A stretch of 64,000 bases of DNA from the NCBI GenBank assembly GCA_964012805.1, contig CAXGUD010000002.1, positions 128,001 through 192,000 of the forward strand, written 5' to 3'. The position numbers and the translations under genes were made by a program. The notes under the pieces were generated by a model. It was not told the origin of the DNA, did no database searches, and saw only the letters and a program-made list of their open reading frames with translations. Of this stretch, positions 36,367 to 44,070 are shown piece after piece. The stretch's first letter is position 1; every line of letters begins with the position of its first letter. This DNA is from an uncultured Bacteriovoracaceae bacterium (GTDB lineage Bacteria > Bdellovibrionota > Bacteriovoracia > Bacteriovoracales > Bacteriovoracaceae).

Positions 36367-39300
36367 ATGAATAAAAAATATTGTAGTTTCAAAATTATCC
36401 TTCTTATGTTTCTTATTTGTTTTAAAACCTACGCAGGTGGAGGCCCAGATACGACTGAAGTTGATGAAACCGTCGATGAAGGTCAAAAGTTCAGTTGTAC
36501 AGATGAAAGGTATTATGTCGACGAAGCTTCTGCTTATGTTAATGATCCCGAATACGCTGGCTACGAAAGAAAAGGAAGTAACCGCTGCATAACAGATTGT
36601 GATTGCACTGGGAAAAGAATTTGTGGCCAAAAACCTCAATGGCCTTATTTTGGCGGTCGTGGCTGGTGCCATGGAGAAGGCCACACTGTTGGCTATAAAG
36701 AATCTCAGGCCCTAAGTGGAGTCTGGACTCAAGGTACTTACTACAAACCAGAAGGAGGGGACGGTCAGCAAAAATTCACTGACACCGGTTCAATGGGAGG
36801 AAGGATAGAAGCTTCTTTTGTTGTCGACGGGAAAAGTGGTGCCGCCACTTACAGGATTCCTATAAAAGTTCCACCAGGGCATAGGGGACTTCAGCCAAGC
36901 TTATCGCTTAATTATTCTTCAAGGCTAGGAAACTCTCACTTTGGAGTTGGCTGGGACTTAGTTGGTCTCCCCACTTTAACTAGGTGTGGAACAAATAGTG
37001 CCCTTGATGGAGATAAAGAGTTTTGGAAGTACCAAGAGAGTTATTCATGCAAAAAAAATAGAACGGTAAAGTACACTTGCCAAAAGGATCGTACTCGTTA
37101 CCGATGGGAAAGAAGGATAACAGGTTGTAAAAAAAGAAACTGGTGGGGAGCATGCTCACAATACATTTATAAGACTTCTAGAGTCCCTTATAAGCAATAC
37201 TACTCTGCTACATGTGAAAAAGATGAAGCTTATACCACAACTTGTACTAGGGAAAAAGAAGACTCAATTATTCGAGGGTCAAGAGGAATTACCTACAGTG
37301 AAAAAGATAAGCTCTGTTTTAATGGACAACGGCTTATTCCTACAGATGAAGGTTCTACTTACGGTAGTTCCGGATCGAACTATATTTTAAAAAATGACCG
37401 CCACATCAAAGTTAGGATTGAAGGGAAAGGCTGCAGCTTAAAAATGAAAAACATGCCAAACTGCTTAATTACCGTCACCGAAAAAAATGGAAATGAACTC
37501 CTTTTTAATGCTCAAGGTGATAAAAGGATGTTTTGGCTCGCCCATATTAAAGATCCCATGGACAATAAAATGAAGGTTATATACCACAACCATGAAAGTG
37601 GAGCTGAAACCGTTCCTGATCGAATACAATGGACCGTTACGAAGAACTCCAATGCTACAAGGGAAATTAAATTTCATTGGAAGGATCGGTTTGACAAACA
37701 AAAATCCTATGGCGGCGGTTATGTTTTTAAAAGGTTCCGCATCATCTCTCATATTGAAGTCAATGGAAAAAGCAAGGGTTCTTGGAAAAATTTATTTACT
37801 TATAACTTTAATCACCTTAGAGGAAACTCTACTAAAAGAAGCCTTATCAATTGGATTCAACTTTGTGGTGTTGACGACCGATCAAATAAAAAGGTTTGCC
37901 TACCAGAAACATCTTTTAAATACAGTGATGGAGAAGAGCAAGGTCCCTTTAATCAGCTTAGAAGTATCAACTGGGCCAATTTTAACGATTGGGGAGGAAA
38001 CGGCCCTTTTAAATCTAATTCTACAAAAGGAGCTTTAGGTAGGGATTTTGATAATGGGGATATGAATATAAAACTTATGGCCGATATGAACGGTGATGGC
38101 CTAGGTGACTTGGTTTATATTCAAGCTGGTGGAGCAAGAAATGATGGGGATGCTCATAAGGAAGATGATTGGAATGGAGACTTAGATAGGATCTGCACTG
38201 CCCTTTCCACAGGTGAAAAATTTAACTCACCGGTTTGTCAAAAAATGATGGCCTATAACGAATCTCGTGAAAATAGTGAAGTTTATGCTTTTGGTGATAT
38301 TAACGCTGATGGTGCCTCAGACGTTATTAATTTTAGTAAGGCCCATAAAAATATTAATGAACATGGTACTAGGGCGCTCTATGGAATACCAAGAGATGCA
38401 ACAAACACTGAGGGGTTTAGAGAAAAATTAAGTTTTGAGTTTGATGATGATAGGCTTGTTAGTCAACCAAAGCAAGGAGTTTATAAAGAGTGGTGGAGTA
38501 ATAATCAAGGGACCATTGGGTCAGGAAAAAATTATCGGTGTGCAAATGATGGCGGCTCAACCTATTGCAAAGGTCCTAATAAAAGAGAAATTATAGATGT
38601 TAATGGAGACGGACTGCCAGACCTTGTCGTCTTTGGAATGAAAGATGTTTGGGTTGGTCTTAATAATCAAAGTTCCCCTGGAAAATTTAATAACTTGAAA
38701 TCATGGATAGGGCCTTCCCATTACTCAAAAGAAGTGGCCCCAACTTTTGAACCAGGCGGTTGGCAAGATAATGATTACCCAAGAATGATGTGCGATGTAG
38801 ATGGGGATGGACTTCCCGATATTGTTGGTTTTGGGCATTCTGGAACCTATGTCTACTGGAATTCAGGAAGAAGTTTTGCACAAACTGATTCAGGCAAGAC
38901 CAATGGAAAATATATAGATAACTTCGGTTGGAAACAAGGTTGGCGTGCTGAGGACAAACACAAAAGAACCTGTGCTGATATAAACGGCGATGGGATGACC
39001 GACCTCATTGGTTTTGCCAATAATTCAACAATTGTTTATGCTTCCACTGGTGTAGGCTTTAAACTTTTTGCTGATCTTAAGGCCTTTGGTTCTAATAAAT
39101 GGGATCACTTTAAAGAGGCAAGGGGTGTTCAAGACCTAAACGGAGATGGGCTAGCTGATATTTTTGGTTTTCAAAGGAAAGGCGATAACGAAGGGGAAAT
39201 ACTCGCAGCCTTCTCAACAGGAACCGGCTTTGATCGAGTCATCCGTATTAGCTCTAGCCTCAGAAGCGAAAACGTAGTGGCTGACTTAAAAAACCCTCGT

Positions 39301-44070: not shown

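Follow-up and report, generated by a model that had tools for sequence, protein, structure and literature searches.

The window considered here (a stretch of 64,000 nucleotides from contig CAXGUD010000002.1 of an uncultured Bacteriovoracaceae bacterium, positions 128,001 to 192,000) carries the gene of an RHS precursor, P0001 (36367-44070, + strand, 2567 aa), which begins with ATG and has GGGA 9 nt upstream. The last barrel turn of its product contains about 110 extra residues, which form a transmembrane (TM) helix followed by a basic loop and then by a second signal peptide, and an internal signal-peptidase cut after A2093 is likely by the rules for such signals. The shell and the lid with its cargo are likely to be exported as two chains because the internal signal is conserved and a natural two-gene form exists. 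The original prediction, made from the letters of this DNA, had described one polypeptide; the conserved insert predicts two mature chains. The evidence as a whole leans slightly towards a cage of the TcB-TcC and SGS kind, split by a hairpin and assembled in the periplasm, which would be an effector guided by glycans and inserting into membranes, directed against non-kin cells.

The insert and the layout of the precursor

In residues 2001-2093 of P0001 an amphipathic helix is followed by a TM helix (2045-2063), next by a basic loop and finally by a hydrophobic helix that ends in V-Y-A. The hydrophobic moment of the amphipathic helix (2001-2044) is among the top 0.4% of shell windows, nine of the 14 loop positions (2064-2077) are invariant across seven paralogs, and V2091 and A2093 are invariant in the paralog alignment. 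By rule, the second helix has the basic n-region, the h-region and the small residues at -3 and -1 of a signal-peptidase-I substrate, with the predicted cut at 2093/2094; when the n/h/c rule was applied to residues 41-2224, only the V-Y-A site and one overlapping alternative were found. Solved RHS proteins are devoid of the insert, 216 profile positions corresponding to 94 residues of 8H8A and 220 to 114 residues of 7Q97. From the barrel/plug boundary of Photorhabdus Rhs1 (PMC8636562) and the start of the TIGR03696 match at residue 2147, we infer that the insert is placed a few strands ahead of the RHS plug.

Within the clade, 25 of the 66 hairpin positions are invariant, compared with a mean of 9.5 per alignment window, and only propeller windows reach 26; silent sites are saturated across the hairpin. 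Gene conversion as the source of this conservation was rejected, since the identity at four-fold sites is 0.29, against 0.35-0.38 in the shell. Prepilin-type cleavage expects Glu at +5, and a cut of this type at LxAG was also rejected because that Glu is missing. The NCBIfam sorting-signal families gave no match for residues 2000-2093 or for a stand-alone copy of the hairpin. This copy is an open reading frame (ORF) of 61 codons elsewhere in the source genome (G000:C12:81741-81926, equal to L109:2242-2427) which stops exactly after the predicted -1 Ala. It keeps the W-W-H-Y-P loop and 30-40% identity to the RHS hairpin, second codon positions being best preserved, and it is without a clear ribosome-binding site. 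No orphan hairpin was found in the other 237 genomes searched.

The features of the locus are the following:

36367..44070 (+): RHS precursor P0001 (ORF, Pfam, NCBIfam)
36367..36435 (+): predicted first Sec signal peptide, residues 1-23, with T-Y-A followed by G-G (hydrophobic peak 6-24)
36496..36669 (+): scytovirin-like Cys-rich module with two insertions, residues 44-101, candidate high-mannose lectin (alignment to the ortholog)
36799..36996 (+): SpvB / TcB N-terminal domain, residues 145-210 (Pfam, structure-profile match, alignment)
38071..39387 (+): seven-blade FG-GAP propeller, residues 569-1007 (2BWM match, blade counts)
39394..42342 (+): YD-repeat barrel, residues 1010-1992 (Pfam and profile alignments)
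42367..42498 (+): insert part 1, conserved LxAG-[MF]-F-[DE] motif and amphipathic helix, residues 2001-2044 (hydrophobic moment, alignment)
42499..42555 (+): insert part 2, TM1, predicted stop-transfer helix, residues 2045-2063 (Kyte-Doolittle 2.17)
42556..42597 (+): insert part 3, basic loop, predicted to be cytoplasmic, W-W-H-Y-P being invariant, residues 2064-2077 (conservation)
42598..42645 (+): insert part 4, predicted second signal peptide, h- and c-region with V-Y-A end, residues 2078-2093 (V2091 and A2093 invariant)
42646..43038 (+): N-terminal part of the predicted second mature chain, with the last barrel strands and the RHS plug/autoprotease (R2195, D2200, D2220)
43039..43476 (+): cargo part 1, hydrophobic Gly/Ala-rich helices, SGS1/SGS4-homologous (8FJP and 9ON3 matches)
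43477..44067 (+): cargo part 2, variable C-terminal tip without family (no Pfam or NCBIfam match)
44143..44574 (-): convergent hotdog thioesterase gene, outside the system (Pfam, NCBIfam)
35546..36118 (+): dedicated partner gene, 190 aa, with an N-terminal TM helix (family only beside RHS genes)

The ORF content proposed earlier (SpvB, propeller, YD shell and an RHS core with PxxxxDPxG) was confirmed by Pfam, NCBIfam and motif searches. SpvB was matched at residues 155-206 (E 2.6e-10), followed by a variable Cys-rich insert (residues 216-300 of P0001), and FG-GAP_3 (E 2.1e-16) and RHS_repeat (E 4.8e-17) were also detected. The matches to Pfam RHS (residues 2122-2156, E 0.0016) and to the NCBIfam core TIGR03696 (residues 2147-2223, 32 bits against 32.5) both stay below their cut-offs. 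There are seven D-x-N-G-D-G-x-x-D calcium motifs and a single PxxxxDPxG, at 2215-2223. R2195 and D2200 are invariant in all seven aligned paralog rows and DP[ST]G is present in 6/6 complete paralogs; D2220 sits within DPSG, and the R-D spacing is that of the triad in bacterial teneurin-like proteins (BiTLPs). The R/D/D aspartyl autoprotease triad is intact and its activity is predicted. The boundary of the first signal peptide, a small residue followed by G-G, is common to the five paralogs with an intact start. A Sec-exported shell resembling TcB-TcC, as originally proposed, is supported by this predicted signal peptide together with the triad, and the next gene is indeed convergent. The architecture first described stands, having passed over the insert with its two TM helices (2045-2093), the partner gene, three full-length paralogs and a type II secretion system (T2SS). 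The closest named relative of P0001 is a Bacteriovoracales protein, and scans for promoters and terminators gave results at chance level only. Four sets of metatranscriptome contigs yielded no match, which speaks neither for nor against expression.

Recurrence of the hairpin across phyla

Homology searches collected 182 distant proteins, a set enriched in the insert as the query contained it. Two hydrophobic peaks precede the core in 42 of these proteins, one in 15 and none in 115, the other 10 having no core match. A stricter insert rule called 40 of 167 and missed eight further carriers that were seen on inspection. The insert is present in only 5/33 non-clade matches of the closest-homolog search. 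SpvB accompanies 32 of the 33 full-length insert calls, and an N-terminal h-region is found in 35 of 38 full-length insert members. The sequences of the distant inserts have diverged, but their grammar (helix, basic loop, Ala at -1) is preserved. When the inserts were anchored on the downstream motif [LMI]-x-[PA]-G-x-[NHS]-G, Ala occupied position -1 in 33 of 37, compared with 1-7 of 37 for the positions from -11 to -4; the four exceptions are two register shifts of one residue and two lipobox forms. K+R exceeds D+E in the loop of 38/40 inserts, and as a control another strongly hydrophobic stretch was found in none of 37 shells.

GTDB was also scanned with a motif blind to both the TM helix and the Ala. 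This gave 51 matches, of which 16 lay in unrelated frames and were dropped, and 35 lay in RHS genes of Myxococcota, Spirochaetota, Acidobacteriota, Pseudomonadota and Bdellovibrionota, one of them being the protein of L021, an ortholog of P0001. An h-region is present in all 35; 19 end in Ala at -1, one of these with a shift of one residue, and in 16 a lipobox Cys is found 16-33 residues upstream, one of these having Ala at -1 too. In Leptospirales members the lipobox reads [ST]-[MI]-[QN]-C, and [ST]-M-Q-C is presumably a spirochaetal lipobox. The spirochaetal consensus is described as plastic. On a quick tree of 77 cores (203 columns) the lipobox label requires at least two changes and 13 insert-less rows are separate with support 99; the place of the P0001 clade in it is unsure (support 81). 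In one Leptospirales bin (L063, L082, L083) at least three lipobox-type members stand in tandem on one contig, with two more on another.

A natural two-gene form was found in an alphaproteobacterium (L057). Its first gene encodes 1886 aa with SpvB, FG-GAP and YD repeats and stops where the insert would start. The second gene lies 15 nt downstream behind an AAGGGAG Shine-Dalgarno sequence and encodes its own signal peptide without TM1, the equivalent of the mature start, the core, HINT and a tip. Searches beyond L057 revealed no further two-gene forms. P0040, P0042, P0065 and P0108 were rejected as gene splits and treated as gene-caller fragments; their start Met lies inside the second helix. 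For the other RHS proteins of the class, in 66 further genomes, the matches cover mainly the core from about profile position 190-250 onwards or one YD repeat, and not the insert. A metagenome scan gave 11 loci, two being re-assemblies of the genome's own paralogs and nine weak RHS matches, with no insert among the matches listed. Three giant RHS proteins without SpvB, P0090 (Anaerolineae), P0129 and P0132, have a similar hairpin of TM helix, basic stretch and signal-peptide-like helix about 130-200 residues before the core, elsewhere in the barrel, which could be an independent invention.

These counts bear on a very unlikely alternative, in which the hairpin is never cut and serves as a double inner-membrane anchor for a cage that acts in the periplasm or works like a receptor. 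The two clear hydrophobic helices with a positive-inside loop would suit such an anchor, as would the strong constraint on the helix sequences in the clade and the fact that no cut site freeing the shell from TM1 was identified. Nevertheless, a plain anchor needs neither Ala at -1 nor alternation with a lipobox, and it would not give way to a stop codon and a new signal peptide.

Export, cargo and possible target

In the two-chain reading, the first signal peptide would send the lectin modules, SpvB domain, propeller and barrel through Sec. TM1 would stop the transfer, the basic loop staying in the cytoplasm, and the second helix would restart export and be cut after A2093. The freed chain (last strands, plug and cargo) would complete the barrel of the tethered shell in the periplasm, as its colinearity with solved RHS proteins and the natural two-gene version suggest. 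The shell may then leave TM1 by some protease and exit via the T2SS, a step proposed because the source genome has, at other places, six rhomboid genes as well as a gsp operon with GspD, E, F and G. The R/D/D autoprotease would cut after DPSG-E, and the assembly would comprise a shell of about 222 kDa with a lid of 15 kDa and a cargo of 37 kDa. Finally, the PVL-like and scytovirin-like modules may bind surfaces rich in GlcNAc or mannose, and the SGS-like helices would insert into the target membrane. That the purpose of this arrangement is to load the hydrophobic helices of the cargo while the shell is still open, ahead of closure by the lid, is speculative and held with more doubt than conviction.

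The source genome (G000; 4.47 Mb, 100% complete) was searched for known delivery systems. PAAR, Phage_GPD/VgrG and VipB/TssC gave no match in it, their positive controls being matched, and P0001 has no PAAR or prePAAR N-terminus in Pfam. VRP1 and TcA (TcA_TcB_BD) gave no match there either, with the controls of both searches silent in this genome. The TcA search works, because it found matches in 7 of 28 other genomes with family members (none in the remaining 21). The lack of PAAR, VgrG and TcA originally noted for the window extends, therefore, to matches in the whole genome, and a system independent of TcA and of a type VI secretion system (T6SS) is supported by these searches.

After DPSG, P0001 continues with Gly/Ala-rich helices that contain a W-x-W motif. 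The best solved matches of core plus cargo are mosquito SGS1 (8FJP, E 2e-12, residues 2120-2304) and SGS4 (9ON3, E 1.9e-11); these matches include the RHS core and their alignments run about 50-80 residues beyond DPxG. In SGS1 the helices are partly folded inside the chamber (around 230 residues) and the chain leaves via a side opening (PMC9935623). The cargo is 343 aa long in P0001 and 327-664 aa in paralogs, and the chamber probably encloses only a part of it, as in SGS1, because chambers of this kind hold about 200-230 residues. Full enclosure in a self-contained cage, as first proposed, is unlikely on these lengths. In its strict form (one soluble chain, no other gene needed, cargo fully enclosed) that proposal is scarcely credible: all cage parts are indeed in one ORF and neither TcA nor a T6SS was found in the genome, yet the core region contains two TM helices, there is a dedicated partner gene and even the shortest paralog cargo exceeds what SGS1 holds. 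A hydrophobic cargo start occurs in 43 of 48 insert-bearing proteins, against 14 of 88 other RHS proteins that are not of the SpvB type. The similarity of the P0001 cargo to its paralogs ends by cargo residue 236; an Atlas search of the tip gave only unnamed clusters. No orphan cargo cassettes were found in the genome, where a tblastn search with the cargo returns only the four full genes.

Scytovirin binds high-mannose glycans. A scytovirin-like module is present in two of the seven paralogs: the one of the ortholog L021 matches scytovirin 2JMV (E 3.4e-14) and PF20888 (34.9 bits, cut-off 27), and residues 44-101 of P0001 align to it and to scytovirin-type repeats encoded at G000:C7 (pairwise E 1e-8). 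The protein with these repeats (G000:C7:57677-60979, L107:2678-5980) has 1100 aa, looks secreted and ends in six of them with Pro-Lys linkers (PF20888 E 4.5e-60). Residues 736-1005 of the P0001 propeller resemble the fungal GlcNAc lectins PVL and AAL2 (2BWM, E 2.5e-40). Blades of the PVL type number 3-5 in each of the seven paralogs and are absent from 28 distant full-length loci; judged by the GlcNAc-site residues of AAL2 (PMC4483166), the other six paralogs have 0-1 complete blade and two W+H blades each. Two more proteins with PVL-type blades are encoded at G000:C87:1-3591, the W+H pair being found in 4/4 blades of one. The built-in targeting parts that had been proposed are thus detected as lectin-like modules and would fit a non-self, possibly eukaryotic target. 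Together with the lack of an immunity gene, the predicted lectin parts fit a glycoprotein-coated eukaryotic microbe, although GlcNAc is also found on bacteria; a eukaryotic target is about evenly balanced.

The product of P0001 is rather likely an effector, as far as its domains indicate. An adhesin or a prey- or particle-capture device made by the same two-chain biogenesis, with post-DPxG helices that anchor and no toxin, is unlikely. It would agree with the two lectin-like modules, with the lack of matches to HINT or an enzyme domain in the cargos of six complete paralogs, with the absence of orphan cassettes and of an immunity gene at the locus, and with the fact that SGS1 is not presented as a shown toxin in the available text of PMC9935623. 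Against it, the autoprotease triad is intact and the tips are variable, distant members carry HINT, nuclease tips and immunity-type neighbours, and the hydrophobic RHS cargo of a BiTLP permeabilises E. coli when exported (bioRxiv 10.1101/2025.11.11.687626).

Related to immunity, no same-strand ORF of at least 35 aa was found within 900 nt downstream of P0001, where the convergent thioesterase lies, so that the absence of a downstream immunity gene was borne out at this locus. Among distant members, 28 of 32 cargos (four near-duplicates omitted) and 8 of 15 downstream genes were scanned; HINT is present in 13/14 Ala-type and 0/14 lipobox-type cargos, and four of the eight downstream genes, each neighbouring an Ala-type gene, encode ankyrin, SUFU, TPR or SUKH proteins. 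An unnamed family of proteins with two TM helices (L024:3398-3982, L022:9554-10099 and L022:12787-13374) was observed only downstream of long-cargo paralogs, following two of the six paralog loci with a visible downstream side; G000 has one copy and the congeneric genome G002 two, and it occurs nowhere else in both genomes. These proteins are candidate immunity proteins for the long-cargo paralogs, not for the P0001 locus. An antibacterial membrane toxin with unconventional immunity, provided by the leftover hairpin, by the upstream partner or by the latter family in long-cargo paralogs, is improbable. The unusually strong constraint on the hairpin, its stand-alone copy ending at the predicted -1 Ala, the position of the two-TM family and the 1:1 occurrence of partner and RHS genes speak for this proposal. 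On the other hand, the stand-alone hairpin occurs in a single genome and is not preceded by a clear ribosome-binding site, tips that vary cannot be matched by a protector that is conserved, no two-TM neighbour accompanies the C23 paralog, and the distant insert sequences are not conserved.

Several points weigh against the favoured reading of a hairpin-split effector cage. Hydropathy and motif rules, and no trained predictor, served to recognise signal peptides, and the lipobox rule was tuned by eye after the sequences had been seen. As 17 of the 18 lipobox rows form one group (support 92), the lipobox counts are not independent events. The two-gene form comes from one metagenome bin, and the two other genomes of its order gave no match. 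The lack of an identified site for release from TM1 counts here too. A hydrophobic cargo start is also found in 14 of 22 SpvB-type RHS proteins without insert; such a start does not depend, therefore, on the insert. The cargo helices, at Kyte-Doolittle 2.5, could halt their own passage through Sec in the producer. The C-terminal tip of P0001 has no Pfam or NCBIfam match and no recognisable toxin domain. The full N-W-H site is present in only one of the three PVL-type blades detected in P0001 (W859/H865), and its Cys-rich module gives no direct match to scytovirin or PF20888. Distant members with HINT, nuclease tips and SUKH, SUFU or ankyrin neighbours look antibacterial and therefore argue against a eukaryotic target for the whole family.

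Partner gene, known systems and neighbourhood

Four full-length RHS paralogs are present in the source genome and three in G002; none was found in G001 (72% complete). A gene of the partner family, encoding 190-212 aa, lies 248-391 nt upstream of each of the four RHS genes of the source genome. The partner of P0001 has one uncleaved-looking N-terminal TM helix and a soluble domain without known family. The family has four copies in G000 and three in G002 (two of them next to an RHS gene and one at the end of a contig), and it was found neither in 236 other genomes of the class nor, by profile, beside 34 distant RHS genes. Its 30 close homologs have no Pfam family, and an Atlas match to a YycI-like protein (0.80) is a lead only. 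It may be speculated that the TM-anchored partner holds or processes the hairpin. The description of the system as self-contained does not hold, since this lineage-specific membrane protein accompanies every RHS copy in the genome 1:1 and the T2SS operon lies elsewhere. A pairing of partner and RHS gene is reminiscent of MafA/MafB (PMC3482391, section 37).

The general architecture is not new. The TcdB/TcaC class of Zhang 2012 (PMC3482391, Table 1) shares with P0001 the signal peptide, SpvB, integrin-like propeller, RHS repeats and variable C-terminus, so that a stand-alone protein of this design had already been described. The length of P0001 is near the peak of that class (2200-2400 aa; PMC3482391), and many relatives carry HINT, whereas P0001 is without HINT, known toxin domain or immunity gene. 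The main-text passages of PMC3482391 describe neither a TM/signal-peptide insert inside the chain nor a lipobox form or a split into two genes at this site; its supplement may show TM segments. SGS1 and SGS4 (8FJP, 9ON3; PMC9935623) likewise have a single-gene BC-like shell, propeller, R/D/D core and homologous post-cleavage helices, and SGS1 also has lectin-like surface domains and no TcA. SGS1 differs in being eukaryotic, with no classical signal peptide, other lectin folds and a Tox-SGS tip, and the available text of PMC9935623 reports no insert. TcB-TcC (PMC7861908; 4IGL, 4O9X) shares the SpvB N-terminus, propeller, YD barrel and PxxxxDxxG autoprotease, but P0001 has a Sec signal and its genome no TcA match. 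Besides, the predicted chain break of P0001 lies about 130 residues before DPxG, while the TcB/TcC break is far earlier (TcC has about 670 residues before the cut). The BiTLPs share export by Sec/SPI or Sec/SPII with no injection machine, and one has a membrane-permeabilising cargo; they differ in having FN-plug and NHL domains and not SpvB/FG-GAP, a cargo of about 15 kDa, downstream immunity almost always, and signals that are N-terminal only in the available text (bioRxiv 10.1101/2025.11.11.687626). The PAAR, VgrG and TssBC features of T6SS Rhs effectors were not matched in P0001 or its genome.

Concerning the hairpin itself, CTERM sorting signals and the internal MYXO-CTERM of MXAN_5598 (PMC11980579) share the order of motif, TM helix and basic cluster. 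CTERM substrates fold tethered and exit by T2SS, internal use being rare; the internal signal of MXAN_5598 joins two proteins (PMC11980579), whereas the P0001 hairpin would split one fold. Nor does the P0001 hairpin have the Cys, GG or LPXTG signature of MYXO-CTERM, GlyGly-CTERM and LPXTG signals. In flavivirus polyproteins one product ends with a first TM helix, the second TM helix acts as signal peptide for the product that follows, and the cut is made by signal peptidase; the FbcH precursor of Bradyrhizobium reportedly has a similar stop-transfer/signal hairpin cut by signal peptidase. Those hairpins separate complete proteins, whereas the P0001 products would complement one beta-barrel. 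As for the lectin-like parts, PropLec7B PVL/AAL2 (PMC4483166, PMC11186620) shares with P0001 the consensus of the blades and, for one of them, the GlcNAc site N-W-H, and the scytovirin repeat (2JMV) has a Cys pattern like the P0001 module. In P0001 these modules sit within a toxin shell, degenerate blades are in the majority and binding is predicted. No description of an internal-signal insert in RHS proteins was found in the available, mostly open-access literature on RHS/SpvB, teneurin-like, SGS, Leptospira and Bdellovibrionota proteins, nor in the available text of PMC11656739, PMC12457778, PMC2387172 and bioRxiv 2025.05.08.652813.

On this comparison, P0001 would combine a known toxin architecture with a two-chain biogenesis that spans phyla and seems not to have been described, and with a lineage-specific re-targeting by lectins. 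A wider proposal can be offered only tentatively. In it, a virus-style polyprotein hairpin would define a cross-phylum RHS subfamily, splitting the barrel into a tethered open shell and a separate lid, with pore-forming helices packed before closure. The lipobox swap would turn a released toxin (HINT, nuclease and immunity) into a surface-anchored one, the Bacteriovoracales cage would have been re-aimed with lectins of fungal and cyanobacterial type, the leftover hairpin would work with the partner or protect the producer, and the family would be, by its cargo module, a candidate bacterial relative of the mosquito SGS salivary proteins. Cargo loading into RHS/YD cages and the export and aiming of cages independent of TcA and T6SS are open questions, delivery or release being left unresolved in PMC8636562 and bioRxiv 10.1101/2025.11.11.687626. 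Cargo loading becomes directly testable in a family with a shell and lid that are separable, where a cut site is predicted and where a form with a lipobox and one with two genes exist. Internal signal-peptide processing would be extended to a cut within one fold, the mode of anchoring is tied to the type of cargo by the HINT distribution, and bacterial relatives are supplied for the stored helix module of mosquito SGS1.

Other genes were observed around the paralogs. A TM-anchored protein of 221 aa (L026:3067-3732), two genes upstream of the C4 partner, has a similar layout and no match to the partner profile. A convergent RVT_1 reverse transcriptase follows directly three of the six paralogs with a visible downstream side (L026:12789-14018, L025:3003-3862, L022:8736-9506); one locus has it intact, and in the other two it is decayed or truncated. 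Both G000 copies adjoin RHS genes. Directly upstream of the partner of the 2927-aa paralog there is a GH5 glycoside hydrolase (L024:14166-16370), with Cys-rich N-terminal repeats and the GH5 domain at its C-terminus. A cluster of 57 related ORFs of at least 900 aa is spread genome-wide, with members in the window at 26532-30509 and 45802-55634; the gene at 52842-55634 encodes a 7TMR-DISM, Hpt and HATPase kinase, and the cluster looks like an expansion of CheA-like sensors. Finally, the window holds at 60843-63972 a LOV photoreceptor beside crtI- and crtB-like carotenoid genes.

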